Below, one piece after another: positions 9,457 to 42,177 of a stretch of DNA of 64,000 bases (positions are counted from its first letter, which is position 1; each line of letters starts with the position of its first letter). The DNA comes from Marinicella sp. (lineage in GTDB: Bacteria; Pseudomonadota; Gammaproteobacteria; Xanthomonadales; Marinicellaceae), in the NCBI GenBank assembly GCA_965230295.1, contig OZ246001.1, forward strand, positions 3,616,001 through 3,680,000, given 5' to 3'. A program made the position numbers and the translations under genes. The notes below the pieces were generated by a model that saw nothing but the letters and a program-made list of their open reading frames with translations, was not told the origin of the DNA and ran no database searches.

Positions 9457-10764
9457 ATGAGGCAAACATTTTTCGCCATTGTATATTTGGCATTTTATTC
9501 CCTGTCATTGGCATCTGAATCTGCAGAGCAAATGACAGTTAACCTCAAGTTTGAGGAAGCAATCAATACAGCGATCAGTAATGATCCTTGGCTTTTAGGT
9601 AGCATACATCAACAAAAGTCTTTGGATGCACTCAGCGTGTCTGCAGGACAACTGCCTGACCCCAAAGTGTCTGTCGGGCTGGTTAATTTGGCCACTGACA
9701 CATTTGATTTTAGCCAAGAAAGGATGACCCACCTCAAATTGGGTATCACCCAACAGTTTCCAAGAGGCGAAACCAGAAAACTCAGACAGGATCAACTGAA
9801 ACTGCACAGCAGTCAATTTCCTTTTCTGAGGGCGGATCGGATGGGGCAGATCACCATGCTGGTTGGCAATATTTGGTTGGATTTATACGAAACTCAAGAG
9901 AGCATACGCATCATCAAGGGCAGCCGACAGTTATTTGAAAACTTGGTAGAAATTGCCGAAAGCAGTTACAGCGCTGCCATTGCAAAGACCAATCAATTGG
10001 ACATCGTCCAAGCAGAACTGGAGTTGTCATTGCTAGATGACAGACTCGTTGTTTTGGAACAAAACCAACAAATGCATGTGGCTCAATTGTCTCGGTGGTT
10101 GGGACTAAATTTGGTTAAGAACAGCGCTGTTGATAGGCAGCTCCCTGACCTTAACCAGACTAACAACGAAGCCGTCGATTCAGGCCAATTCATGTATCAT
10201 CCAGCAGTCTTATCAGTTGATAAAAAAATTGAATCAGGTGTTGTCGACATTGAATTGGCTGAGCAACAATATAAACCTGCTTGGTCATGGAACATAGGCT
10301 ATGGATACCGAGACAGTGATCCTACTGGGTTTGACCGGTCTGATTTGCTTTCTGTGAATGTGAATTTTGACTTACCTCTGTTCACCAGTCATCGACAGGA
10401 TAAAGGGTTGGAGGCGGCTGTAGAGTCACACAATGCCTTATTGACAGAGAAAGAGGACATCCTCCGAAAGTTGATGGCTATTGACGAGGAAAATTCACAG
10501 GCACTTTGGGGATTGTCCAAAAGAGCCAAACTGTACCTCGAAGATCTGTTACCTCAGATCAATGATAGTGTAGAAATTGCACTGCGGGCTTACTCCAGTG
10601 ATGAAGGCACTTTCGATGATGTGATCAGGGCCCAAATTTCAAAATTAGATGCTTCTTTGCAATTGTTAAAAATCCAGGTTGAGACTCAAAAGCGGGCCTT
10701 GTCCATCAACTACGCTCGCATGAGTGAGGCAAACCATATGTTCTCAAGAGGAGGTGGCTCATGA
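9457..10764 (+). CDS. Outer membrane efflux protein (TolC/CusC-like)
   Basis: Signal peptide, LPDPKVSVG, coiled-coil OEP character; operon with cusB/cusA. Confidence 0.88.
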   Translation: MRQTFFAIVYLAFYSLSLASESAEQMTVNLKFEEAINTAISNDPWLLGSIHQQKSLDALSVSAGQLPDPKVSVGLVNLATDTFDFSQERMTHLKLGITQQFPRGETRKLRQDQLKLHSSQFPFLRADRMGQITMLVGNIWLDLYETQESIRIIKGSRQLFENLVEIAESSYSAAIAKTNQLDIVQAELELSLLDDRLVVLEQNQQMHVAQLSRWLGLNLVKNSAVDRQLPDLNQTNNEAVDSGQFMYHPAVLSVDKKIESGVVDIELAEQQYKPAWSWNIGYGYRDSDPTGFDRSDLLSVNVNFDLPLFTSHRQDKGLEAAVESHNALLTEKEDILRKLMAIDEENSQALWGLSKRAKLYLEDLLPQINDSVEIALRAYSSDEGTFDDVIRAQISKLDASLQLLKIQVETQKRALSINYARMSEANHMFSRGGGS

Positions 10765-12212
10765 AAAACATCATTAAATTCATGCTACCAGGTGTCCTAT
10801 TGGGTGTTTTGATCACCATGTCGATTTCAAAACTAACCAACCAATCTGAAGAAACATCAACAGAAGCGAAGCCACTTTATTGGGTCGCTCCGATGGATCC
10901 AGATTTTCGGCAAGACCAACCAGGCTTATCGCCCATGGGTATGGAATTGGTGCCAGTGTATGCCTCGGACTCGAGTGCAAAAGACAGTTCAGCGGGTGAA
11001 GTGTCCATCTCTTCAGTGGTTGCCAACAATTTGGGACTCAAGACTGCCATGGCCCGGGTAGGGCACCTCAAAGGTAAGATCAACACGGTAGGTATCATCC
11101 AATACGATGAAAACAAACTCCTGCATATTCATCCACGAGTCGAAGGCTGGATTGAGAAGCTTCATGTGAAATCAATGGGTGACCAAGTGGCCAAAGGGCA
11201 ATTATTGTATGAGATTTATTCGCCTGAATTGGTCAATGCACAAGAAGAATTTATATTGGCTTTAAAACGCAACAACACCGCATTGATCAAAGCATCTGAA
11301 GCACGTCTGAAATCCCTGCAAATTCCAATGGATGTGATTAATTTGATCAGAAAGCAAAGGGCGTCTGAGCAGACCATTCCATATTACTCACCACAGAAAG
11401 GAGTGATTGAACACATAGAAATCAGAGAGGGGTTCTTTGTTAAGCCCGGCACCACATTGATGTCAATTGCTGACTTAAGCAGCGTATGGGTAGAAGCCCA
11501 AGTTCTTAACTTCAATAAGCCAGATTTAATCACGGGCGCCATTGCGACCATGCGCCAGAAGGCATTTCCGAATCAAATTTGGCAAGGTGTGGTTGAGTAC
11601 ATCTATCCGTCATTGGATAGACAAACGCAAACGCTCAGGGCCCGTCTGACATTCCAAAATGATTCTGGCTTACTTAGACCCAACATGTTCGTAGATGTGG
11701 CTATTGATCAGCCTCAACTTGAAGCCTTGATCATCCCCAAAAATGCCCTGATTAGACTGGAGAACAGCCAGCGTGTGGTGATAAAAACAGACAATAATAG
11801 GTATAAATCGGTCAATGTATCCACAGGTGGTTATGATTCTGAGTTTATACAGATTACATCCGGCCTGTTACCGGGTGATGTTGTGGTGACTTCGGCCCAA
11901 TTTTTACTGGATTCAGAATCCAGCAAATCATCAGACTTTGATCGCATGAATCTGGGTGATATGGAAAATGTGGCTTTGACTTTTGGCACCATCAATGAAT
12001 TGGATGAACAAAACAGAACTTTGAACATCAGCCGGGATGGCATTGAAAAATGGAATCGACCACCTGCTACGTTGGATTTTTTTGTACCTGAACAAATTGA
12101 ATTTAACAAATTCCTGAAAGGGCAAAAACTGCAATTTTATTTTGAAATAAAAGATGGCGTTTTCTCTATCCTTCATGCTGATTTGGTGACAACAAGGAGT
12201 ATAGATTCATGA
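10761..12212 (+). CDS. cusB: Heavy-metal RND periplasmic adaptor with C-terminal CusF-like OB domain
   Basis: YWVAPMDP..PGLSPMGMELVP metal-binding domain; IYSPELVNAQEE; VTSAQFLLDSES. Confidence 0.88.
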   Translation: MKNIIKFMLPGVLLGVLITMSISKLTNQSEETSTEAKPLYWVAPMDPDFRQDQPGLSPMGMELVPVYASDSSAKDSSAGEVSISSVVANNLGLKTAMARVGHLKGKINTVGIIQYDENKLLHIHPRVEGWIEKLHVKSMGDQVAKGQLLYEIYSPELVNAQEEFILALKRNNTALIKASEARLKSLQIPMDVINLIRKQRASEQTIPYYSPQKGVIEHIEIREGFFVKPGTTLMSIADLSSVWVEAQVLNFNKPDLITGAIATMRQKAFPNQIWQGVVEYIYPSLDRQTQTLRARLTFQNDSGLLRPNMFVDVAIDQPQLEALIIPKNALIRLENSQRVVIKTDNNRYKSVNVSTGGYDSEFIQITSGLLPGDVVVTSAQFLLDSESSKSSDFDRMNLGDMENVALTFGTINELDEQNRTLNISRDGIEKWNRPPATLDFFVPEQIEFNKFLKGQKLQFYFEIKDGVFSILHADLVTTRSIDS

Positions 12213-15200
12213 TTGAAGCCGTGATCAAGTGGTCCATCAAACATCGTTTTCTGGTGTTGCTGGCCACTTTATTCATCATTGTTGGTGGGTTGTTTTCAGT
12301 CAAGCAAACACCCGTAGATGCAATCCCTGACTTGTCTGATGTTCAAGTGATTGTCAAAACCAGTTTTCCTGGCCAGTCACCTCAAGTGGTGGAAGATCAG
12401 GTCACATACCCATTAACCACGGCCATGCTAGCGGTACCTGGAGCGAAAACTGTCAGGGGCTTTTCATTTTTTGGTGACTCTTACGTCTACATCATTTTTG
12501 ATGAAGACACCGATTTATATTGGGCCAGATCCAGGGTTTTGGAGTATTTGAACCAGGCGGCATCACAGTTACCTCCGGAGGTTAAGCCACAACTGGGACC
12601 CGATGCCACCGGCGTGGGATGGGTCTATATTTATGCTTTGTCTGACCCAACCAACCAGTTAGACATCAGTGAACTCAGAAGTGCTCAGGATTGGTTTTTA
12701 AAATACGAATTACAAACCGTTGAAGGGGTCTCTGAAGTGGCGTCACTGGGCGGTATGGTCAAGCAGTACCAGATAGAGGTCAACCCCAATGCCCTCAGGG
12801 CTTTAAACATACCTTTGAACCATGTGGTTCAAGCCATCAAACAAGGCAGTCAAGAGGTGGGCGCTTCGGTGGTTGAAATGGCAGAGGCCGAATACATGAT
12901 CAATGCCACCGGGTACATCCAAAGTGTTGATGACCTGGAACATGTCCCCATTGGATTGAATCAAAATGGCGCGCCTTTGCTTTTACAAGACATCGCAGAC
13001 ATCAACATTGGACCTCAGATGAGAAGGGGTCTAGCTGATTTGAATGGGGACGGTGAAGTGGTTGGTGGCATTGTGGTCATGCGTTATGGAGAAAATGCCC
13101 AAGAAGTCATTGAGCGGGTAAAAACAAAACTGCAAGTTCTTGAAAAAAGCCTGCCAGAAGGTGTAACTGTTACCACAGTATATGACCGCAGTGATCTCAT
13201 CGTACGTGCTGTGAATAACCTGTGGGAGAAGCTCATTGAAGAGTTTCTGGTGGTCATTGGTGTTTGTCTGGTCTTTTTGTTTCATGTTCGTTCATCACTG
13301 GTTGCCATCATCAGTTTACCAGTGGGTATCCTTGCTGCCTTTATTGTCATGAACTTACAAGGACTCAATGCCAACATCATGTCTTTGGGTGGTATTGCCA
13401 TCGCCATCGGTGCCATGATTGACGGGGCCATTGTGATGATCGAAAACATGCACAAGCACATGGAAAAAACTGAACTCACTGATAAGAACCGGTGGCAAGT
13501 GGTGGCCAAATCTGCAGCTGAAGTCGGGCCTGCCTTATTTTTCAGCTTATTGATCATTACCGTCAGTTTCTTTCCAGTCTTTTCGCTGGAAGCTCAAGAA
13601 GGCCGCATGTTTTCACCGTTGGCATTCACCAAGACTTATGCCATGGCCGCTGCCGCCGCATTGGCCATTACATTGGTTCCGGTATTGATGGGGTATTTTG
13701 TGAGGGGGGAAGTAAGGGCTGAGCATAAGAACCCCATTAATCGTTTCCTGCTCAATTTGTATTTACCCGCATTGAAGGCTGCACTGCGCTTTCCCAAATC
13801 TACTTTGGTGCTTGCAGTTCTGATTCTTTTGATCAGTGCATGGCCAGTCCAAAAAATTGGCACCGAGTTCATGCCTCAATTGGATGAGGGCGATTTGATG
13901 TACATGCCTACCACTTATCCAGGCATTTCCATCGGAGAGGCTCGTGAGGTGTTGCAACAAACAGATAAATTGATTGCTACGGTTCCAGAAGTTAACACTG
14001 TTTTTGGCAAAATTGGCCGAGCTGAAACAGCCACTGATCCAGCACCGTTAACCATGATTGAAACCTTCATACAACTCAAGCCAAAGTCAGAGTGGCGTGA
14101 TGGCATGACAACCGATGTTCTTATCCAAGAATTGGACTCTCTGGTCAACATACCGGGTTTAACCAATGCCTGGGTCATGCCAATTAAGACCAGGATTGAT
14201 ATGTTGGCCACTGGCATCAAAACCCCGGTTGGCATCAAGGTAGCTGGACCCGATCTGGACACCATTCAAGCGATTGGGCAAGACATTGAATCAATCCTTA
14301 CTCAGGTTGAAGGAACTGCATCTGTGTATGCAGAAAGGGTCTCAGGAGGACGCTACCTGAAAATCGATATTGATCGATTGGCAGCAGCCAAATACGGATT
14401 GAATATCCAGGATGCTCAACAGTACATCAGCCTCGCTGTGGGTGGAAAAAACATTGCACAAAGTGTAGAAAAATTAGAAAGGTATCCAATCAACTTGCGA
14501 TTCCCGCAACACCTCAGGAATTCACCTGAGTCCATCTTAAGTTTGCCATTGATCACACCCACTGGGCAACACATTGCGCTGGGAGAAGTGGCTGATGTTT
14601 ATCTTGAAGACGGGCCACCTGGTATCAAAAGTGAAAATGCACGCATCAATGGTTGGGTTTATGTTGATATAGAAGACATCGATGTGGGCAGGTATGTTGA
14701 ACTGGCCAAAGCTTCGTTAGAAGACCATTTAACACTGCCGCCAGGTTATTCAATCACATGGTCTGGTCAATATGAATACATGTTGAGGGCAAAAGAAAAA
14801 TTGAGTTACTTGATTCCAATCACTTTAATGATCATTACCTTTTTGCTGTTCTTAAGCTTCAGAAGTTTTTTAGAAGTGGCCATTATTTTGGGCACCTTGC
14901 CTTTTGCTTTGGTGGGGAGCATTTGGTTGATGTATGGATTAGGTTTCAACTTTTCAGTGTCTGTGGGGGTTGGATTCATTGCATTGTCAGGCGTGGCAGT
15001 GGAAATAGGCGTCATTATGCTTAATTTTCTCAATAAAGGCTTTGATACACTTGAAGAGGCGCTAAATAAATCCAATAAGCGATTGACCAACGCGCATTTA
15101 AAGCAAGCTGTGATAGCAGGTTCCGGGATGCGGGTCAGGCCGGTGATGATGACTTCATTGTCAATCATTGTTGGACTTTTACCGATTCTATTCAGCGATG

Positions 15201-15328
15201 GTACCGGGTCTGAAGTGATGAGTCGAATCGCAGCACCCATGGTAGGCGGTATGATCAGTGCTTTGATTTTGACATTGATCGTTCTTCCAGTCATTTATTA
15301 CCTGACAAAAAGAATATGGATTAAATAA
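12209..15328 (+). CDS. cusA: Cu/Ag heavy-metal efflux RND permease
   Basis: DAIPDLSDVQVI, GPDATGVGW, LMYMP, TDPAPLTMIET, IKTRIDMLATG (the three CusA Met sites), RVRPVMMT. Confidence 0.95.
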   Translation: MIEAVIKWSIKHRFLVLLATLFIIVGGLFSVKQTPVDAIPDLSDVQVIVKTSFPGQSPQVVEDQVTYPLTTAMLAVPGAKTVRGFSFFGDSYVYIIFDEDTDLYWARSRVLEYLNQAASQLPPEVKPQLGPDATGVGWVYIYALSDPTNQLDISELRSAQDWFLKYELQTVEGVSEVASLGGMVKQYQIEVNPNALRALNIPLNHVVQAIKQGSQEVGASVVEMAEAEYMINATGYIQSVDDLEHVPIGLNQNGAPLLLQDIADINIGPQMRRGLADLNGDGEVVGGIVVMRYGENAQEVIERVKTKLQVLEKSLPEGVTVTTVYDRSDLIVRAVNNLWEKLIEEFLVVIGVCLVFLFHVRSSLVAIISLPVGILAAFIVMNLQGLNANIMSLGGIAIAIGAMIDGAIVMIENMHKHMEKTELTDKNRWQVVAKSAAEVGPALFFSLLIITVSFFPVFSLEAQEGRMFSPLAFTKTYAMAAAAALAITLVPVLMGYFVRGEVRAEHKNPINRFLLNLYLPALKAALRFPKSTLVLAVLILLISAWPVQKIGTEFMPQLDEGDLMYMPTTYPGISIGEAREVLQQTDKLIATVPEVNTVFGKIGRAETATDPAPLTMIETFIQLKPKSEWRDGMTTDVLIQELDSLVNIPGLTNAWVMPIKTRIDMLATGIKTPVGIKVAGPDLDTIQAIGQDIESILTQVEGTASVYAERVSGGRYLKIDIDRLAAAKYGLNIQDAQQYISLAVGGKNIAQSVEKLERYPINLRFPQHLRNSPESILSLPLITPTGQHIALGEVADVYLEDGPPGIKSENARINGWVYVDIEDIDVGRYVELAKASLEDHLTLPPGYSITWSGQYEYMLRAKEKLSYLIPITLMIITFLLFLSFRSFLEVAIILGTLPFALVGSIWLMYGLGFNFSVSVGVGFIALSGVAVEIGVIMLNFLNKGFDTLEEALNKSNKRLTNAHLKQAVIAGSGMRVRPVMMTSLSIIVGLLPILFSDGTGSEVMSRIAAPMVGGMISALILTLIVLPVIYYLTKRIWIK

Positions 15329-15419
15329 ATTAATTGGCACAACTGATTTTCACGCGGATCATACAATTGGTAGGTTTAAATTAAGTGCATGAATGATTTG
15401 GTTTGACCGGAGTATAGGT

Positions 15420-15668
15420 ATGATTAAAGCAGAAACTCAAAATGACATGAACGAAAAAACAGGAATTAATCTCCAAAAAGCCCTGAAATCTACCATATTG
15501 ATTGTATTTCTTACGGTTGTTTTCGGGGCTTTAAGTTATGGTTTCATCCTGTTAAATGCTTCTGTACTGCAACTGTCTTTACCTGGGAGCTTGTGGTGCG
15601 GTCTGGCCATGGCGTTGGCAGTTGGTTATTATTTGCTACAAAGAAAACCTAAAGACCCCGCAGAATAA
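15420..15668 (+). CDS. Small membrane protein, unknown function
   Basis: Two hydrophobic segments; GGAG upstream of ATG 15420; start uncertain. Confidence 0.55.
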   Translation: MIKAETQNDMNEKTGINLQKALKSTILIVFLTVVFGALSYGFILLNASVLQLSLPGSLWCGLAMALAVGYYLLQRKPKDPAE

Positions 15669-15693
15669 TTTGGTGTTTATTTGGGTTTCAGAA

Positions 15694-16326
15694 AGGAATG
15701 TTCTTGGGGCTTCATTCTGGTTCATGGTCTGACAGGTCTTCATATTTGCTGCGCAAATAAACCGACCTTTACAGACTATTGTCTGAGCAGTTGCTTCGCA
15801 CTGCATGTCTGTTCCTAACAAAAGTGAATGCGACTGCTTACATGGATGTAAGTATGCAGCGATAGCAGGCAGGAATTGTTCCCAACAATTCTCTGCATTC
15901 ACCCCGTCCTGGGGATCGATGCGGTAGCTGCCAAGGCGAACATGACATGCTACCTCGCACGCACTGCGGCATTCAAATCGGGCTTCTTTATCTTCGATAA
16001 AACCGCCCAACTTTCATTGCCTGTGCTATAACGCCATTCACATAAGGCTTCTTGACTTCGTCAAATCGCCACATGTTCATTGGCTATTCTCTTCGCCTCT
16101 GATTGGCTTACATGGAAGTAAGTCCTCTGAGGAGGCAGGATGCCGGTATCAGAGGTGACTACATGGATGTAGGTCTGCCGCGATAGCTAGGAGTGATAGC
16201 GGCCGCTATAACAAAAGCTCACGGCTAATCAATCATTACATCAAGGCTTCTTTGCTTTGCAAAATCGCCATGATTGCATGATTTGCCTAACCGGCTCGGC
16301 GGGTCAAGCTGCTTAGCAGCTTTCCT
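15694..16326. mobile_element. Modular hairpin-rich non-coding element, long copy (MITE-like)
   Basis: Shares its 5' end, a 154-bp core and a 42-bp 3' end with 40744-40964; AGGAA...TTCCT termini; many internal hairpins. Confidence 0.75.
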
Positions 16327-18370
16327 TGGTCGATTGCATATTGTCAATGAATGATACCAGTTCGTCTTTAGGGAGGGGTTTTGCGATAAAAAATCCTTGC
16401 ACAAAGTGAACACCTAACTCCATGGCTTCATCAAATTGTGCTTTGGTTTCTATGCCTTCAAGAACTGTGGTGTGATTCAGGTTGTTGCTGAGATCTATGC
16501 AAGATTTCAGTAGTTTTGAACCTTCTTTAATTTGTAATTGATTGCTGAAGTCAATGTCGTATTTAACGCCGTTGATGTTGAGTTTTGCCAACATTGACAA
16601 TGCTGAAAAGCCTGAGCCAAAATCATCCAGAAAAACTTTAAGTCCACAGTCATTCAAGATTTTCAAATGCTGATTGATGGTTTGTTCTTCAAAGACCGCT
16701 TGATTTTCCAGTATTTCAATACAGAATGTGTGCTTGGCTTTGTCATGCATGTCCACTAAAAAATCAACGAAATCTCGTTCCAACAAGGACCTGGGGGAGA
16801 TGTTGATTGAAATTTCTAGCGCTGAAAACCTATTTGGCCAGTCATGTGATTGCTTAACAGCCCGTTTAACCACCCAACGATCAATGTCAGTGGACAGACC
16901 AACTTCAGATAACATATTGATGAATGTTGGTAATTGGATGTTGCCGTGCTTATCCTCCAGTCGCAGTAAGGCTTCCACTTTGGCTACCTGATTGGTTTTT
17001 AAGTCAATGATGGGCTGATAATAAAGCATCAATTTACCGTGTGATAAAGCCAACAAAAATGAATTGATTTCGTTTTCAAATTCTAAGTTTTTCATCAAAG
17101 AGCGCTGGTTGCGGTATTGCAGTGCTTGGATTTTCCTGGATTCTAAATTAAATTTATGAACAAAATCCTTAACCAGGCCTTCATCCAGATGTGAGGCTTC
17201 CAACATCTTCAAGAACTTAAGGTAAATCAAGACACCCAGCACCAAGTTTAATAATTGTAAAATGACAGCAAACCAATCTCCGCCAGTGGCCAAAAAGACA
17301 TTAATAAAAGGTGGTGTCGTCCAAGGCACAGCCACCACCACTGGAGAAACCAGACCCATGCTCATGAATAAATAGGTGTTCAAATACAGAAGGATAGGAA
17401 CAAATACAAACGGTACAAATAAAAATGGATTGAAGACTATCGGCAGGCCATAGTGAATGATTTCTGAGATGTTGAAAGTACATGGCAGCACCGATAATTT
17501 GGCAACCCGTTGATTCCTGCTTGATTTTGAAAATAACAGGATGGCTATCAACAAACACATGGCTGAACCAGCGCCACCAATGTCTGTGAAGTAATAATTG
17601 CCTGGTACATTGATGTGAGGAATGCTGTTACCTGCCACATGGGCTGCTTGATTGGCAGCAAAAGCATGAAAATACGGATCCTGCATGAAAGCAAAAACGT
17701 GTGACGGATTGACCCCAAAGAACCAAGTTAGTTTATAAATGAACTTGATGATAACTAAACCAATCAGGTTACCGGTGTCTTCAATTTCAAAATTAGCGAG
17801 GAAACCAGATTCAGACAATGTCCACCACATGGCCTCAAAAAACATCAACAGAAAAAAGACCAATACAAATGTAATCGCTGTAGGAATGATGTAGTTAAAT
17901 GTCTTGTTTAAATGAAGCGACATGAAATCTGCATTAAAAATATGCATGCTGTGTTTGGTCGTGAAATACCTGAGTGCAGTTGCCGTTAAATAACACAATG
18001 GAATGGGTATGACCTTAAAATAGGTTGATGATTTCAATTGTTGTAGAGTTTCTACTTCACCAACAACAGAAAGTGTTAACAAACTCACACAAATGATGAC
18101 CAAAGATGTCGGATCCACTTCTTTACTTTTGGCAAATGAAACTGAAAGACTGACAGTAAAAATCAGTGGGAAGAACAGATAAAAAAATTGGTAAATATTC
18201 AGAATGATATCAAGAGAAGGTGAATCTGTTATTAAAGACAAGCCTTCATAAAGCATCAGCAACAGTGTCACTGTAAGAATCATGGGGACCAAAGAAATTG
18301 AAGCATCCTGCAATGCAATGATGCTTCTGCTTTTATTTAAACGATTTAAAACAGAACTGAATTGTCCCAC
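16313..18370 (-). CDS. PTS EIIC (cellobiose/lactose-type) membrane domain fused to an EAL c-di-GMP phosphodiesterase
   Basis: TWFFGVN, IGGAGS, FNISEIIHYGLPIVFNP and VPWTTPPFI (EIIC); YQPII, VEALLR, DDFGSG, EGIET and QGF (EAL). Confidence 0.9.
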   Translation of the reverse strand: MGQFSSVLNRLNKSRSIIALQDASISLVPMILTVTLLLMLYEGLSLITDSPSLDIILNIYQFFYLFFPLIFTVSLSVSFAKSKEVDPTSLVIICVSLLTLSVVGEVETLQQLKSSTYFKVIPIPLCYLTATALRYFTTKHSMHIFNADFMSLHLNKTFNYIIPTAITFVLVFFLLMFFEAMWWTLSESGFLANFEIEDTGNLIGLVIIKFIYKLTWFFGVNPSHVFAFMQDPYFHAFAANQAAHVAGNSIPHINVPGNYYFTDIGGAGSAMCLLIAILLFSKSSRNQRVAKLSVLPCTFNISEIIHYGLPIVFNPFLFVPFVFVPILLYLNTYLFMSMGLVSPVVVAVPWTTPPFINVFLATGGDWFAVILQLLNLVLGVLIYLKFLKMLEASHLDEGLVKDFVHKFNLESRKIQALQYRNQRSLMKNLEFENEINSFLLALSHGKLMLYYQPIIDLKTNQVAKVEALLRLEDKHGNIQLPTFINMLSEVGLSTDIDRWVVKRAVKQSHDWPNRFSALEISINISPRSLLERDFVDFLVDMHDKAKHTFCIEILENQAVFEEQTINQHLKILNDCGLKVFLDDFGSGFSALSMLAKLNINGVKYDIDFSNQLQIKEGSKLLKSCIDLSNNLNHTTVLEGIETKAQFDEAMELGVHFVQGFFIAKPLPKDELVSFIDNMQSTKESC

Positions 18371-34723: not shown

Positions 34724-35857
34724 ATGACAATAAATACAACTGAATCCTGTAAGTTCCTATCTTCTGAAAATGATTCAAAAATAGCTGGCAACGTATTGAT
34801 TACTATAGTTATATGTTTGTGTTTTGCGTTTGACACTGTTGCAGAACAGCCTTTTCAAGTGGATGTGATGTATCCAGAGAGGATTGAACAAAGCCAAATC
34901 ATCAAGCTACCTGGTACCATCCAAGCCAAACAACACGCACAACTGGCTTCATTAGAATCAGGGCGGGTGGAGAGTTTGGCAGTTGAAGTGGGCGATGTCG
35001 TCAATAAAGGTCAGGTGTTGCTGATTTTGGAAAGTCAGTTGGCAGAGTTGGAAGTCACCGGAGCCTTGGCAGAAGTCAAAGCTGCAGAGCTGAACTTGCA
35101 AGAAGCCAAGCGATTGTATGGTGAGGTGCAAAAATTATCAGTCCAACAAGCCGTCGCCAAGACATTAATCGCAGAACGGGCTGCCTTGTTGGCCAATGCT
35201 GAAGTTGAGCTGGCCAGGGTCAAAGCCAATCACAATATTCAGCAAGAACGACTGAATCGGCACCGTCTAAAAGCGCCATTCACAGGAGTTATTGCTGAAA
35301 GAAATGTAGATGTGGGTGAGTGGATCACACCACAAAATTCAGTACTGACTTTGGTGGCACAAAACGATTTAAGACTGGCCATTGAGGTCCCTCAACAACA
35401 TTACAACACACTGCGAGCTATCAACGATGTGAAGGTCAGGGTGATTCCAGATACTGCAGGAATCGAATCCATTTCTGCCACGTTAAGTCGGCTGGTACCA
35501 GTCTCCGATTTCCAAACACGTACTTTTTCAGCGCAAATAGATTTGCCTGTTGTGGCATCGAATGGATGGGTTCCAGGCATGTCAGCCCAAGCAGAGCTCT
35601 CGTTTCCTGACAGTGAACAATCAGCCATCATCTTGCCTCGTTCAGCGATCAAACAACATCCAGATGGGAACAGCAGTGTTTTTGTGGTTGATAACAATCA
35701 GGCCAGAAGATTGGTCACAGCATTCACTTCTTTACCAAACAATCAAGTGGCCATATATGGACAACCTGCCAATCAAGCCTATATAGTCAGTGGCGTAGAG
35801 TTGTTAAGAGAAGGGTCAACCATCGTGGCGAATGTGATACAAAATGAACCACAATGA
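34724..35857 (+). CDS. RND efflux periplasmic adaptor subunit
   Basis: GRVESLAVEVGDVV.KGQ, LKAPFTGVI, VDVGEW. Confidence 0.9.
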   Translation: MTINTTESCKFLSSENDSKIAGNVLITIVICLCFAFDTVAEQPFQVDVMYPERIEQSQIIKLPGTIQAKQHAQLASLESGRVESLAVEVGDVVNKGQVLLILESQLAELEVTGALAEVKAAELNLQEAKRLYGEVQKLSVQQAVAKTLIAERAALLANAEVELARVKANHNIQQERLNRHRLKAPFTGVIAERNVDVGEWITPQNSVLTLVAQNDLRLAIEVPQQHYNTLRAINDVKVRVIPDTAGIESISATLSRLVPVSDFQTRTFSAQIDLPVVASNGWVPGMSAQAELSFPDSEQSAIILPRSAIKQHPDGNSSVFVVDNNQARRLVTAFTSLPNNQVAIYGQPANQAYIVSGVELLREGSTIVANVIQNEPQ

Positions 35858-38800
35858 TTGAGTCCACAGTCAAACGCGGTATTTTAGTTACAGTGCTGGT
35901 GCTGATCACCTGTATCCTTGGGGTGGTGGCCTCCATCAAAATTCCGGTACAAATGATCCCTGATTTAGAAGTCAGGACCATCACCGTTCAAACCGGTTGG
36001 CCTGGTGCCACGCCACAAGACGTTGAAAAGGAAATCCTGATCGAACAAGAGCGGTACTTACGAAGCTTGCCCAACTTAAAACGCATGATTTCATCGGCAG
36101 GCATGGGATCGGCCAGAATCGAATTGGAGTTTCCATTTGGGGTTGATGTCAATGAAGCATTGATCAGGGTCAGTAATGCCCTCAGCCAAGTACCTGCCTA
36201 TCCAGAAAATGTGGATCAACCCAGGTTGTTTTCAAGTTCTTTTTCTAGCAATGCTTTCATGTTTTTCCGCTTGGTTCCCTTGCCAGACAATCCAATGCAG
36301 CTGGATATTGATATGTTGCGTGATTTTGCCGATGACTACATCCGCCCCAGAATGGAAAGTGTTCCAGGTGTTTCACAAGTGGATGTGCGCGGTGGTGCGG
36401 CTCGACAAATTCAAATCAAATTGGACATGGTCCAGTTGGCTCAACGCGGTATCAGTCTCAGCCAAGTAAGGGAAGCCATTCGATCAAGAAATTCCGATGC
36501 CTCAGCCGGTGACCTGGAAAGTGGAGAAAGTCGATATTTGTTGCGAGTGATTGGTCGTTTCGATCAACTTGATGACCTGGAAAATCTGATCATAGATCGC
36601 AATGAAAACAGTACATTGTTACTCAAAGACATTGCAGAAATCACTTTGGACCATTATGAAACCAGAAGCCTTTCTTTTGCCGATGGTCAACGCAGCTTGT
36701 CTCTTTCTGTGCGACGTGAAAGTGGTTCTAATGTGATTGCCATCAAGGAGTCTTTACTGCCTGTAGTGGATGAGTTGAATGCATCATTGTTGGTCCAAAA
36801 TGGACTTAAATTAACTTTGTCCAGTGATGATGTTCAGTATGTATCCAATTCATTGGAAAATGTGTGGTTTAACCTGGCCCTAGGGGCCTTATTGGCGACA
36901 CTGGTGATGTTTTTTTTCCTGCGCTCAGGACAATCTACTTTGATAGGTGTATTGGGTATTCCAGTTTGTACCATTGCTGCTTTTTTGGCATTGTTGGCCT
37001 TCGATCGAACCATCAATGTGATTTCTTTGGCAGGCGTGGCATTTGCCATAGGAATGACGGTAGACAACACCATTGTGGTGTTGGAGTCGATCATGCAATT
37101 CCGCAAAAAAGGGCACAGCCGCTATCAGGCGGCGGTGGCAGGGGTACAAGAGGTTTGGCCAGCTGTGTTGGCATCAACCACCACCACCGTTTTGGTCTTT
37201 GCACCGATTCTGTTCATTGTACAAGAGGCGGGTCAACTGTATTCAGACATAGCCATTGCGATTTCAGGGGCCATTGTGGCTTCAATGCTGGTGGCAATCT
37301 TTGTAATCCCTGTGGCGATGGCCAATCTTGGAAAGGAACACTATACCCCGGGTAAATCATTACAATTGGGCCGAGGCTGGATGCGCTTGGTGGGAATTTT
37401 TACTGTCAGTCAGCAGCGGGCTCGTTTACTTTCTGTGGGATTTTTAGCGGTTATTTTAGGCAGCGCCTATGTTTTGATGCCACCTGCAGAATATTTGCCT
37501 GAAGGAGAGGAACCCAAGGCCTTCTCAATGATGTTCGCACCACCCAGTTATAACTTGTCTGAAATGGAAGCCATCGGCGCAGACTTACGTGAATACTTCG
37601 AACCTTATCTCCATGCTGAACCGGAAGCCTTTGAGTCAGGTGAGACCAACATGCCGCCATTGGCTTACTACAGCATGTCCATATCGATCGGTCGAATCTG
37701 GTTTCTCAGTGCTCCTGTGGAACCTAATAACATCCATGCCATGATGGACGCCATCACTGAAAAATTCAGAAGTTATGAAAATATGCGGGCATTTTCTTCA
37801 CGTGGCTCGATCATTTCCAGTAATGATGGAGGCACCCGAGCAGTGGCTGTGGATTTGTCAGGCAGCATAATTACAGATTTATATGCTGCCGCAGAAGCGG
37901 TTTATGCCGAAGCTGAACATGTATTTGAACAACCACAAATCAATTCTGATCCCAGTTCGCTGACTCTCGATCAGCCCTTGATAGAAATTCGACCCCGTTG
38001 GCAAAGGCTGGCTGAGTTGGGTATCAGTAACCGTGAATTTGGTTATGGAGTGGCCACCATCAGTGACGGCGCTTATGTCGATGAATTCATCTTGAATGAC
38101 GATAAAGTGGACATCTTTTTGTTCAGTGGTGCCGGTAACCAGCAAACCATTGAGGCTCTGGCTGCCGCACCATTGACTTTACCTCAAGGCGGAATCATTC
38201 CTTTGAATGCAGTGGCCGATTTGGTAGAAAGTAAGAACAGCGATTCAGTTCGCCGAGTGGATGGTAGACGCACAGTAACTGTTTATATCATTCCCCCTCG
38301 TGAGGTTGCTTTAGAAACCGCAGAAGCCAAGGTTCGTAATGAATTATTGCCTACCTTATGGCAACAAGGTCACATTGCTCAAGGTGTTAACGTCAGCATC
38401 AGTGGTGCTGCCGACCAATTAGAATCAACCAAAGCTTCACTTTCCAGTAACTTTTTGGTGGCCATTGTGCTTTGTTATTTACTTCTTGTGGCAATATTCA
38501 CCCATTGGCGTTTTCCTTTATTTATTTTGGCCACAGTACCACTTGGAATGGCAGGTGGGTTGTTGGGTTTGATTGCCGTCAATGGTGTTATTGCAGTATT
38601 AGGCACCTTAGGTTTTGGTGGTGCACATCAACCCTTCGATATGATTACCATGCTGGGGTTTCTGATCTTACTGGGCACTGTGGTGAACAACCCGATCCTC
38701 ATTGTCGACCAAACCAGACGTTTCCTTGATCAAGGTCAAAATGTACAAAATGCCGTCCGTCAGGCCGTGCAGAAACGCCTTAAACCCATATTGATGTCAA

Positions 38801-38982
38801 CCGCAACAACCATCTTCGGTTTGGCTCCATTGGTGCTGATACCAGGGGAGGGTACCGAATTATATCGTGGTGTTGGTGTGATTGTGATGTGCGGGATCTT
38901 CGTTTCAACTGTCCTCAGTTTGACCTTCTTGCCTGCCTTGTTGATGGGGTTGTTGCGTGATAGAGTAAAACCCAATCATTAA
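35854..38982 (+). CDS. RND efflux permease (AcrB/AcrD/AcrF family)
   Basis: 1042 aa, WPGATPQDVE, GMTVDNTIVVLE, VVNNPILIV, RLKPILMS. Confidence 0.93.
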   Translation: MIESTVKRGILVTVLVLITCILGVVASIKIPVQMIPDLEVRTITVQTGWPGATPQDVEKEILIEQERYLRSLPNLKRMISSAGMGSARIELEFPFGVDVNEALIRVSNALSQVPAYPENVDQPRLFSSSFSSNAFMFFRLVPLPDNPMQLDIDMLRDFADDYIRPRMESVPGVSQVDVRGGAARQIQIKLDMVQLAQRGISLSQVREAIRSRNSDASAGDLESGESRYLLRVIGRFDQLDDLENLIIDRNENSTLLLKDIAEITLDHYETRSLSFADGQRSLSLSVRRESGSNVIAIKESLLPVVDELNASLLVQNGLKLTLSSDDVQYVSNSLENVWFNLALGALLATLVMFFFLRSGQSTLIGVLGIPVCTIAAFLALLAFDRTINVISLAGVAFAIGMTVDNTIVVLESIMQFRKKGHSRYQAAVAGVQEVWPAVLASTTTTVLVFAPILFIVQEAGQLYSDIAIAISGAIVASMLVAIFVIPVAMANLGKEHYTPGKSLQLGRGWMRLVGIFTVSQQRARLLSVGFLAVILGSAYVLMPPAEYLPEGEEPKAFSMMFAPPSYNLSEMEAIGADLREYFEPYLHAEPEAFESGETNMPPLAYYSMSISIGRIWFLSAPVEPNNIHAMMDAITEKFRSYENMRAFSSRGSIISSNDGGTRAVAVDLSGSIITDLYAAAEAVYAEAEHVFEQPQINSDPSSLTLDQPLIEIRPRWQRLAELGISNREFGYGVATISDGAYVDEFILNDDKVDIFLFSGAGNQQTIEALAAAPLTLPQGGIIPLNAVADLVESKNSDSVRRVDGRRTVTVYIIPPREVALETAEAKVRNELLPTLWQQGHIAQGVNVSISGAADQLESTKASLSSNFLVAIVLCYLLLVAIFTHWRFPLFILATVPLGMAGGLLGLIAVNGVIAVLGTLGFGGAHQPFDMITMLGFLILLGTVVNNPILIVDQTRRFLDQGQNVQNAVRQAVQKRLKPILMSTATTIFGLAPLVLIPGEGTELYRGVGVIVMCGIFVSTVLSLTFLPALLMGLLRDRVKPNH

Positions 38983-39318
38983 AGGTTGATTAACCTACAA
39001 AGGCTCATTACACGTACTGTGATGATCATGTAGCCAATCAGATCAACTGTCGAGACACAACAGTCCTCATTCATTTCTACTGTTGTGAATTATTCACAGT
39101 TAACACGATCCAAAATGATGATTCAGACATCGATGTTTTCTTGTTATGTGGGAATTAATTGACAATTTTTTAAGAATTTCCCCATATCCAAAACCGGCCA
39201 CAATACTTCAAATTAAGTTGATCAAGCGTCTTTTTGTGACATGGAATATATACATGTATGCAAAATAAGCCAACATTTCAAGGCTGTAATGCTTGATTCA
39301 ACTATTGAGGAGGCATTT

Positions 39319-40584
39319 ATGAAAAACATACATTTATTAGCAACGAAGCCAAGAAAGAAGGACAGAAAAATCTCATCTTACGATGCAATGAATCTGTTTA
39401 AATTGATCAAGTTAAGTTTTGTTTTATTGGCTTTATTTTTTCCGTATACTGTTATGGCACAGAATGATTGCAGATGGGCTGGAACAGCACCTAGCTGCAA
39501 CGGTTCTTGCAATGCTGGTGAAAGTGAGATCACGAGATTGAGTTTTCTACCTGGTGGGTACCCGCCGTATTACTATGGTCCTGATTTCGGTAAGCCATGT
39601 ATTTCTGGGTCAAAAGCATTGTGCTGTAAGACTCCTGGCAGATCCTGTCGCTGGGATGGCACAGCCCCTTTTTGCGAAGGATCCTGTAATGCTGGTGAAA
39701 AAGTATCCCAACCACCAGCGGGTTCATCCAGTGGAAAAGCTTGTTGGACGGGCAAAAAGGTGTATTGTTGTCGTTCGACAGGTTCCAGTCAATCACCGCT
39801 AACGGCCAAGTCTGAAAAACCACTGTACGCTGCCATTTGGGAAAAAGGTGATGGTACTGCCTGGGTGGCTCGCCACGACATGACTCCCAAAAAATACCAA
39901 CAAGAATTTGATCACTGGGTGAAAAAAGGTTTTCGACTGGTTGATGTCAGTGGCTTCAGTGTGGGTGGTCAACAACGTTTTGCAGCCATCTGGGAGAAAA
40001 GCAATGGACCGGCTTGGCTGGCCCGACACGGCATGGATTCTGCACAATACCAACAGGCGTTTAACAAATGGACTCAAAAGGGTTACCGCTTGTCCCATGT
40101 CAGTGGCTATGGCGTTGGTAGCGAAGACCGTTATGCGGCCATTTGGGAAAAACGCAAAGGCAAGCCTTGGGTGGCTCGTCATGCCATGACTTCGGCCAAA
40201 TACCAGCAAGAATTCAACAAATGGACCAAGAAGGGCTACCGCTTAATTCATGTCAGTGGCTACAACGCCGGCGGTGAAGACCGTTATGCGGCCATATGGG
40301 AAAAAAGCAAAGGGCCTAAATGGAAAGCAAGACACGGTATGACCTCTGAGCAATACCAGAAAGAATTCAACAAGGTGACGAAAAAGGGCTACCGCCTGAC
40401 CCACATCAGTTCTTGGCGTTCCGGCAAAACCAATCGCTACGCAGCCATATGGGAAAAAGACAAAGGTCCTGGCTGGGTGGCACGTCATGCCATGACTTCA
40501 GCCAAATACCAGCAAGAATTCAACAAATGGACCCAAAAAGGCTATCGACCCAAGGACGTCAGTGGCAGCAAACGAGCAGAATGA
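39319..40584 (+). CDS. Secreted protein with two Cys-rich WxGTAPxCxGxC modules and five ~51-aa bacterial tandem repeats (BTRD1/polyglycine-hydrolase-like)
   Basis: GAGGAGG RBS; hydrophobic signal segment; YAAIWEK..G..W.ARH.MT...YQ..F..W.KKGYRL..VSG repeated five times. Confidence 0.8.
   Translation: MKNIHLLATKPRKKDRKISSYDAMNLFKLIKLSFVLLALFFPYTVMAQNDCRWAGTAPSCNGSCNAGESEITRLSFLPGGYPPYYYGPDFGKPCISGSKALCCKTPGRSCRWDGTAPFCEGSCNAGEKVSQPPAGSSSGKACWTGKKVYCCRSTGSSQSPLTAKSEKPLYAAIWEKGDGTAWVARHDMTPKKYQQEFDHWVKKGFRLVDVSGFSVGGQQRFAAIWEKSNGPAWLARHGMDSAQYQQAFNKWTQKGYRLSHVSGYGVGSEDRYAAIWEKRKGKPWVARHAMTSAKYQQEFNKWTKKGYRLIHVSGYNAGGEDRYAAIWEKSKGPKWKARHGMTSEQYQKEFNKVTKKGYRLTHISSWRSGKTNRYAAIWEKDKGPGWVARHAMTSAKYQQEFNKWTQKGYRPKDVSGSKRAE
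39826..40566 (+). repeat. Intragenic tandem repeat, about 153-bp unit, five copies
   Basis: Near-identical blocks, e.g. CGTCATGCCATGACTTC.GCCAAATACCAGCAAGAATTCAACAAATGGACC at about 40177 and 40483. Confidence 0.85.
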
Positions 40585-40743: not shown

Positions 40744-40964
40744 AGGAATGTTCTTGGGGCTTTACTGCAATTGTTCCAAACAATTCTCTGCATTCACCCC
40801 GTCCTGGGGATCGATGCGGTAGCTGCCGAGGTGAACATGACAGGCTACCTCGCACGCACTACGGCATTCAAATCGGGCTTCTTTATCTTCGATAAAACCG
40901 CCAACCTTTCATCACCTGCGCTGCCTAACCGGTTCGGTGGGTCATGCTGCTCAGCAGCTTTCCT
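40744..40964. mobile_element. Modular non-coding element, short copy
   Basis: Same termini and core as 15694-16326 but lacks both internal expansions. Confidence 0.75.
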
Positions 40965-41184
40965 ACTACTAAAGGGCTCAAACAGTTTATGTTTCATGAG
41001 GAGAATAGGGCGAGTCTACTTGATGACAATAAAGATTTTCCCAAGTGTATTTCGTCGCATTTCTATGTCAGTTCATCCCATTGACATTGATGTTGTCTAT
41101 CAGGATTTTTAAGATCATTTTATTCAGCCATCGTGATTGACTGAATATGCCATGAAACAGATAAATGTGCGGGAGGATATTCAA

Positions 41185-42177
41185 ATGCTTGGTATAAAAA
41201 ACAGACAACGTGACCGTAATCAGCTGATGCTTAATCTTCTTGTTGTTCCATTTGGCCTATCTGGCAGTTTTGATGAATCTTCTCAGCATACCTTCAAGAC
41301 AACGACTGATACCCAAGGTTGCGTGATCCAGCAGTTAACCAGTGAGGACTACGATGAATTCCAACACCATGGTGTCAGTGATGACGGCCAATGGCTTGCC
41401 GTGGGGTGGAACAAGGGTGAGGATGCTGATGGGAATCCCGTCAGAGGCTCATACCTGTTGAATTTGCTTACAGGAAAAAAAAAGCATTTGCCCAAACCGC
41501 TCAACCACAATTCCAGCTTTTCACCTGATGGTCAATTTTTGATCGGTGCCCAGTATACCTCTGATGGCAAGACAGAATTGTATGAGTACGATCTCAAAGC
41601 GGAGCAGGCCACTGTCATTGCGGCAGATCCCAATTGGGATTTCAAACCCAGTTACACGCCCGATGGACAATCCATCGTTTTTAATTCATACCGCACGGGA
41701 AATTCAGAAATTTACCTTTATGCTCGCGCAGACAAAACCATGCAGCAATTGACCCAACATGACAGCTACGATTCCCATGGAGAGATGTCACCTGACGGCC
41801 GCAAAATTTTGTTTCATAGACATGTGAAAACCAAGTCTGAAGGGGTTTATGATTTTGATCTTTACGTTCACGATATTGCCACTGGTACAGAATCCCGATT
41901 AACCTCAACACCTCAAGAAGAAGGGTACCCTGCCTGGGGGCCAGACGGGAAAAAAATTGTTTTCAGCTACAACAAAAACGACAAGCCAGGCGTCAACCAC
42001 CTTTATATCATGGAGCCAGACGGTACGCTGAAGCAACTTACAGGAGGTGACTGGAAAGACAGCTACGCACAGTGGACTCGGGATGGTAGTTACATTTATT
42101 TCAATACAGACCGCAACGGCGTCTCCGATATCTATCGCATCAAAATGGATGGCTCTAACTGCGTTAAACCCAGTTAA
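41185..42177 (+). CDS. TolB-like PD40 beta-propeller protein
   Basis: Repeated SPDG/TPDG/GPDG motifs, FNSYRTGNSEIY; GGAGG RBS before ATG 41185. Confidence 0.85.
   Translation: MLGIKNRQRDRNQLMLNLLVVPFGLSGSFDESSQHTFKTTTDTQGCVIQQLTSEDYDEFQHHGVSDDGQWLAVGWNKGEDADGNPVRGSYLLNLLTGKKKHLPKPLNHNSSFSPDGQFLIGAQYTSDGKTELYEYDLKAEQATVIAADPNWDFKPSYTPDGQSIVFNSYRTGNSEIYLYARADKTMQQLTQHDSYDSHGEMSPDGRKILFHRHVKTKSEGVYDFDLYVHDIATGTESRLTSTPQEEGYPAWGPDGKKIVFSYNKNDKPGVNHLYIMEPDGTLKQLTGGDWKDSYAQWTRDGSYIYFNTDRNGVSDIYRIKMDGSNCVKPS

Follow-up and report, generated by a model that had tools for sequence, protein, structure and literature searches.

Composite repeats of the BOX and BIME type have been described in few well-studied bacteria, and there is still debate on how they spread and how their size changes. 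In Streptococcus pneumoniae and S. suis, a BOX element combines boxA and boxC with boxB modules in variable number between them, for a total of 67-637 bp (PMC3049150). The palindromic repeats of extragenic DNA known as REPs measure 20-40 nt, are GC-rich, carry a GT(A/G)G head, alternate in orientation and are usually present in more than 100 copies in a genome; for REPs and bacterial interspersed mosaic elements (BIMEs), a hairpin-recognising HUH enzyme has been proposed as the mover (PMC2817692). Insertion sequences (IS) of the IS200/IS605 family have no terminal inverted repeats, make no target duplication, carry a hairpin at each end and have derivatives that consist of the ends only (PMC7290912), and in miniature transposable elements of the inverted-repeat type (MITEs) the defining features are terminal inverted repeats, target duplications and AT-richness (PMC3049150). 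Here we analyze a 64,000-nt stretch of the chromosome of Marinicella sp. (contig OZ246001.1, positions 3,616,001 to 3,680,000), hereafter named the window, in which a hairpin-rich intergenic element is present in a long and a short copy. We interpret it as a low-copy composite repeat of the BOX/BIME kind, probably a non-autonomous mobile element resized by insertions and deletions (indels) between its hairpins, and estimate the probability of this reading at about one half.

The two copies, both of which are seen whole, share a 5' end, a core of about 154 nt and a 3' end, between which hairpin units and unique blocks vary. The long copy (15694-16326, plus strand) measures 633 nt and the short copy (40744-40964, plus strand) 221 nt; they are colinear and lie some 25 kb apart. 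Their 5' ends (15694-15712 and 40744-40762) are identical at 19 of 19 nt, or at 21 of 21 if the two preceding A's at 15692-15693 are counted. The core (15874-16027 against 40769-40922, 154 nt) is identical at 144 positions (blastn E = 1.5e-63), and the 3' end (16284-16326 against 40922-40964, 43 nt) at 39 positions (blastn E = 2e-11). A first-pass annotation, made from the sequence of the window alone, had delineated these three colinear blocks at the same positions and had counted the 10 core mismatches exactly; the four mismatches it gave for the 3' end are also correct, the length of that block being 43 nt rather than 42. The 60-nt flanks outside either end of the copies match at 20/60 and 18/60 positions, that is at chance level, so that the copy boundaries are sharp. 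Beyond these two, no further copy, whole or partial, was found in the window. The intergenic gaps housing them are 644 nt (long copy) and 552 nt (short copy), and each copy sits downstream of a co-oriented gene. At its right end the long copy overlaps the convergent gene of a fusion protein with PTS-EIIC (phosphotransferase system) and EAL domains (16313-18370, minus strand), to which its positions 16313-16326 supply four terminal codons and the stop.

All units of the long copy are described here on the plus strand, from left to right. The shared 5' end is followed by a left block (15713-15873) without counterpart in the short copy, which includes an imperfect palindrome of 16+16 nt (15734-15768) and the hairpin A1 (15837-15852), with GGA in its loop and a unit that runs to 15866. 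The core then carries hairpins X (15874-15890), Y (15902-15914) and Z (15923-15954), as well as the four-tier hairpin unit B1 (15964-16025). Next come B2 (16029-16088), in tandem with B1 at a period of 65 nt, and hairpin A2 (16107-16122), enclosed by a larger inverted repeat (16093-16103 / 16148-16158). Hairpin A3 (16159-16172) belongs to a unit that runs to 16187 and is identical to that of A1 at 25 of 28 nt; it precedes a 10+10-nt palindrome without spacer (16193-16212), a third B unit, B3 (16227-16287), and the shared 3' end, in which two small hairpins are found. The unit set of the short copy is reduced to the 5' end, X-Y-Z, B1 (40859-40920) and the 3' end. The blocks that it lacks start and stop beside hairpin units. 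The first reading of these extra blocks (15713-15873 and 16028-16284) as being made of hairpins holds, in that they are hairpin-rich and that the long copy folds beyond shuffled sequences (see below).

Two types of repeated unit can be distinguished. Unit B is a four-tier hairpin of about 60 nt, whose conserved centre consists of GGCTTCTT, a stem, TTY, a stem and AAA-N-CGCC; there are three in the long copy and one in the short copy. A pattern derived from this motif has 4 matches in the window for 0.03 expected, all of them within the copies and pointing the same way. A search of both strands of the window, filters off, with a covariance model of the four B units recovered the 4 known units only, the next match having an E-value of 0.32. 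Unit A is a 14-16-nt hairpin with GGA in the loop, (C)TTACATGGA(T/A)GTAA(G), or CTACATGGATGTAG, present three times in the long copy, in one orientation, and absent from the short copy.

A third copy is visible through P0001, a 123-aa protein entry of NCBI and ENA which is in fact a spurious open reading frame (ORF), the minus-strand translation of another copy of the element. Where the two align, it is 95% identical to the minus-strand translation of the long copy; its contig and that of the window's own EAL protein (P0005) both measure 4,008,074 bp, and it probably lies in the same chromosome as the window. The match of P0001 ends at the same 5' boundary as that of the window copies (...RTFL), and continues into a different flank. 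It is colinear with positions 16205-15693 save two gaps, both necessarily multiples of 3 nt since only an open frame is called as a protein: the first, of 51 nt (16110-16160), is exactly the A2-to-A3 period, and the second, of 129 nt (15957-16085), removes B1 and B2 almost exactly. As far as the ORF reaches, P0001 has the unit set of the long copy minus B1, B2 and A2, with A1 and A3 kept. Three copies therefore correspond to three unit sets, and the endpoints of the indels that make them vary in size fall between hairpins. Diverged relatives (P0002, P0003 and P0004) were found on at least three other public contigs, at 45-72% identity in translation and with differing subsets of blocks, the left block being carried by P0003 and P0004 as well as by P0001. 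The family is therefore present outside this genome. The first-pass annotation had proposed a mobile element or RNA family that grows or shrinks by whole modules, and had named the existence of only two copies, with no empty alleles, as telling against it. There are more, and the non-coding family with unit-wise differences is retained, whereas growth or shrinkage as a direction, as well as mobility, go beyond what the copies display.

The family is non-coding and matches no known RNA family. Its reading frames are interrupted by stops, and none is conserved as a protein across copies beyond the core, in agreement with the initial view that neither copy encodes a credible protein. No match up to E = 10 was obtained in Pfam, NCBIfam or PDB for the ORFs of the copies and for P0001-P0004, and an HMMER pass over 1.84 billion proteins returned just 3 short spurious ORFs, themselves translations of other copies. 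Rfam, which the first-pass annotation had suggested searching, gave no match in the whole window at gathering score (release 15); at E <= 10, the copies had chance-level hits only (SNORD47 at E = 7.1; CRISPR-DR52, sR2, bxd_5 and sR35 at E = 2 to 5). No tRNA or transfer-messenger RNA gene was found in the window.

One frame deserves a closer look. It belongs to the minus strand of the core and runs for 46 codons without a stop in each of the two copies; of the 7 substitutions within it, 3 are synonymous, a proportion indistinguishable from chance. This frame might be the relic of a gene, the core being a former minus-strand coding sequence, for instance the 3' end of an IS gene together with its end, as in ends-only derivatives of IS200/IS605. 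The core peptide is loosely similar to what we take to be the C-terminal motif of TnpB, a resemblance for which no support was found. Ends-only derivatives of IS605 can keep the last part of tnpB along with the right end (PMC7290912). The empty Pfam, NCBIfam and PDB searches and the absence of any real protein family in the HMMER pass argue against such a remnant. So do the differences that separate the copies from P0004, the more distant relative, which are mostly amino-acid replacements and apparent frameshifts, and the B unit inside the frame, whose recurrences measure 25 and 27 nt, a repeat at the nucleotide rather than the peptide level. We consider a decayed coding sequence very improbable.

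No terminal inverted repeats were detected: the best end-to-end match is 6 nt for the long copy and 5 nt for the short one, and was equalled by 208 and 455 of 500 shuffles, respectively. Likewise, direct repeats of 3-10 nt, such as a target-site duplication would leave, were not found around both copies at matching offsets. Ends-only derivatives of IS200/IS605 insert 3' of a fixed tetra- or pentanucleotide; the last five letters of the left flanks are CAGAA and TATAA here, with only A-N-A-A in common before the boundary of the two window copies. At the 3' end, a hairpin of 5-7 bp ends 6-7 nt from the boundary; at the 5' end, only a weak 5-bp hairpin spans it. Among the ORFs of the window (44 compared with NCBIfam, and 6 then 18 with Pfam), we found no transposase, Y1/RAYT protein, recombinase, reverse transcriptase or parent element. 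On all three points, termini forming at most a short inverted repeat, no clear target-site duplication and no mobilising enzyme in the window, the first-pass annotation had been right.

The following scenario may be proposed. The copies would have reached their intergenic sites as non-autonomous mobile elements, mobilised by an enzyme that acts in trans from another part of the genome and can do without terminal inverted repeats and target duplication. The type of enzyme most compatible with the lack of inverted repeats and duplications, and with hairpins near the ends, would be a single-strand transposase that recognises hairpins, of the IS200/IS605/RAYT kind. Size would then be altered by deletion or duplication between repeated hairpins, in the way the number of boxB modules varies in pneumococcal BOX, and copies read through from neighbour genes would form stem-loops in 3' untranslated regions (UTRs).

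Several observations weigh against this scenario. Besides the missing target-site duplication and mobilising enzyme, the census is small, with three copies known in the genome, two of which are within the 64 kb of the window. At their C-termini, the 11 nearest orthologues of the EIIC-EAL protein encoded next to the long copy have tails that are all unlike the window's and unlike one another, and no empty site is readable from them. The G+C content of the copies, 0.48 and 0.53, is above that of the window (0.42), unlike typical MITEs. A plasmid or phage origin was rejected, as the long copy had no blastn match (word size 11) in 72,556 plasmid and 50,697 phage records. A search for proteins in the plus frame yielded no spurious ORFs. 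Two peptide patterns derived from unit B1 were also scanned against 185,579 species genomes: 56 stretches had a pattern and one passed, a weak negative, given that the window's own genome was not recovered and that copies without B1, or varying in it (P0001, P0004), are undetectable in this way. The stretch that passed (L001, 1448-1501, from a Planctomycetota metagenome-assembled genome) shares the seed octapeptide alone, with a stop two codons later, and was discarded as a chance match. Finally, the frame constraint on the indels of P0001 and the leniency of the covariation control described below also count on this side.

Compared with described systems, the architecture resembles that of BOX: fixed terminal modules enclose a variable number of internal hairpin modules, which fold independently, the sizes are comparable (67-637 bp for BOX, 221-633 bp here), and copies of either kind can run into the ends of genes and give rise to spurious ORFs. 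The likeness is one of architecture only. BOX has terminal inverted repeats and target duplications (PMC3049150), neither of which was found here, belongs to a different host phylum, and consists of one tandem boxB array where the present element combines two repeated unit types and unique blocks.

With the RAYT-associated REP, BIME and REPIN sequences, the element has in common that it is an extragenic mosaic of imperfect palindromes with compensatory changes (PMC2817692), in a class, the Gammaproteobacteria, where such repeats are found, including in a neighbouring order (Stenotrophomonas), and that it lacks classical terminal inverted repeats and target duplications. It departs from them by the orientation of its units, which is the same for 4/4 B and 3/3 A units, with no inverted B copy, by its unique ends and core, and by its frequency of 2 copies per 64 kb. 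By eye, no head-plus-palindrome arrangement was seen either: GTAG occurs inside hairpins Z and A3, and is not followed by a GC-rich palindrome.

The ends-only derivatives of IS200/IS605, or palindrome-associated transposable elements (PATEs), resemble it by the absence of terminal inverted repeats, target duplication and coding capacity, and perhaps by hairpins near the ends (PMC7290912). Mobilisation in trans is a property of PATEs that would have its equivalent in the present family. They differ from it by the internal modular variation seen here, by its weak left-end hairpin and by the absence of a parent IS or tnpA in the window. MITEs such as Correia, ERIC and RUP are also small, non-coding, highly base-paired intergenic repeats that sometimes overlap gene ends; the present copies differ in having no inverted repeats, no duplication and a G+C content above the window's. 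Among 15 of 110 papers on Marinicella genomes, titles and the beginnings of abstracts mention no repeat element. We regard the element as a family not described before, though of a general kind that is known, set apart from BOX and MITEs by the absence of terminal inverted repeats and target duplications, and from REP by the uniform orientation of its units.

Base pairing within the copies is consistent with the favoured mobile repeat, and raises the question of a function as RNA. Relative to 20 shuffles per test, the long copy folds better as single-stranded DNA (z = -4.3 on the plus and -5.0 on the minus strand) and as RNA (z = -2.6 and -6.1, respectively); the folding of the short copy is not significant (z about -1.7 on both strands). 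Among the 10 core mismatches, 7 fall in unpaired columns and 3 preserve pairs, none of the 44 (plus) or 48 (minus) predicted pairs being broken, a count biased by the choice of a consensus fold that fits both sequences. The three B paralogues of the long copy exhibit compensatory stem changes: 8 of 18 pairs are altered on both sides, compared to a mean of 2.8 in shuffles and 0-2 in slid controls, and 79% of the cells are paired in B units versus 27-46% with partners slid, in a control that is lenient, the structure having been derived from the same four sequences. Hairpins are thus maintained by structure-preserving changes.

The main alternative is a family of structured RNAs, either 3'-UTR cis elements or paralogous small or large non-coding RNAs, with a scaffold of ends and core that tolerates plug-in hairpins. 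The copies would be paralogous genes and not DNA that has transposed, although such RNAs would be compatible with a mobile origin as well, as proposed for BOX. A terminal 5-bp AGGAA/UUCCU helix closes the predicted fold of either copy on either strand. Several features point to the minus strand, on which the long copy has its best score (-6.1 versus -2.6), the core its lower consensus energy (-47.9 versus -35.8 kcal/mol), and the three core substitutions, A-U/G-U or C-G/U-G, keep their pairing, which is lost on the other strand. The covariation of the B hairpins also fits a structured RNA, as does the position of both copies 3' of a co-oriented gene, the minus strand of the long copy being in addition the 3' UTR of the EAL gene. 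Set against this, no promoter- or terminator-like site is common to the copies, the counts of such sites being within the range of shuffles, no Rfam family was matched, and the short copy folds no better than shuffled sequence. Moreover, as single-stranded DNA both strands of the long copy are about equally structured, and palindromes may act at the DNA level. A structured-RNA family is possible, and on balance we doubt it.

The A hairpins of the plus strand suggest a more specific role, since all three present ACA-N-GGA-N-GU in the loop. The long form could be an RNA that titrates CsrA/RsmA, or a sponge located in a 3' UTR. The CsrA consensus obtained by SELEX is RUACARGGAUGU (PMC7652899); A1 and A3 match it at 10 of 12 positions and A2 at 9 of 12, with the invariant ACA, GGA and GU present, and a second GGA, 17-28 nt after each A hairpin, would suit CsrA dimers. 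Three of the 13 matches of a looser pattern in the window fall in the 633 nt of the long copy, and A1 and A3 are kept in P0001. The neighbour EIIC-EAL protein is weakly similar to the CsrD model (E = 1.3e-21; 76.6 bits for a cut-off of 663). Enrichment was found neither for GGA in the long copy (9 versus 8.0 in shuffles) nor for the looser pattern in the window (13 versus 9.5 expected), and GacA-box-like sites are at chance level (25 versus 28 expected), with no promoter found. The Rfam CsrB and Rsm models are unmatched, the three A hairpins are paralogues and count as one event, and their absence from the short copy implies that they do not define the family. A CsrA-titrating function is, in our opinion, highly improbable.

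A broader version would be a new class of modular structured RNAs on a spreading scaffold, whose ends and core form a closed frame into which protein-binding hairpins are plugged in variably. In such a class, the A units would be CsrA/RsmA-type GGA hairpins read on the plus strand, and the B units four-tier hairpins read on the minus strand, which have a GAA/AAA triloop and conserve an internal loop. This idea is improbable on present evidence; if true, copies would deliver regulatory sites into 3' UTRs, for example beside the EIIC-EAL gene.

The family offers a clean low-copy example of a composite repeat in a little-studied marine lineage, with two hairpin unit types, sharp ends, and neither inverted repeats nor duplication. 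If a cognate enzyme is encoded by the genome, a hairpin-recognising transposase would be linked to a modular element; if there is none, a structured RNA with plug-in modules would be indicated. For annotation, the copies matter in two ways: they create spurious ORFs, such as P0001-P0004, and they can contribute the end of a gene, the EAL gene having four terminal codons and its stop within the long copy.

The other genes next to the copies are as follows. On the left side of the long copy, an ORF of 91 aa (15393-15668, plus strand), hydrophobic and resembling a small membrane protein, comes directly after cusA and has its stop 26 nt before the long copy; it matched no family above cut-off. Upstream of the short copy, a gene for a protein with BTRD1 repeats (39241-40584, plus strand) stops at a distance of 160 nt, and downstream of it, a gene for a PD40/TolB-like beta-propeller protein (41137-42177, plus strand) starts after 173 nt.

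Within the BTRD1 gene, positions 39823-40563 hold five tandem repeats of 153 nt, 61-73% identical to the reference copy, which encode five BTRD1 repeats (polyglycine-hydrolase-like structural repeats), and a Cys-rich N-terminal motif is duplicated at 39475-39523 / 39652-39700. The EIIC-EAL fusion, for its part, belongs to a small family of full-length orthologues (53-80% identity) found in Marinicella-like genomes, those of the closest genomes being at 80% and 71%; among orthologues with a name, the closest to the protein (P0005) are from M. meishanensis (64%) and Marinicella sp. W31 (53%).

The window as a whole is an ordinary gammaproteobacterial chromosome segment, with dnaB-alr, two resistance-nodulation-division (RND) efflux operons, a formate dehydrogenase and other housekeeping genes, and 13 of its 16 bins of 4 kb have a positive GC skew. 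The two RND operons (9457-15328 and 34724-38982) are one of the CusCBA-like and one of the multidrug type; the short stretches of nucleotide similarity that they share stem from the homology of their proteins and not from repeats. The segment 52001-64000 has a G+C content of 0.35-0.37, versus 0.41-0.46 in most of the window, and contains many ORFs without family match, along with regulators of the LytTR type and S41 peptidases; its DNA may have been acquired.

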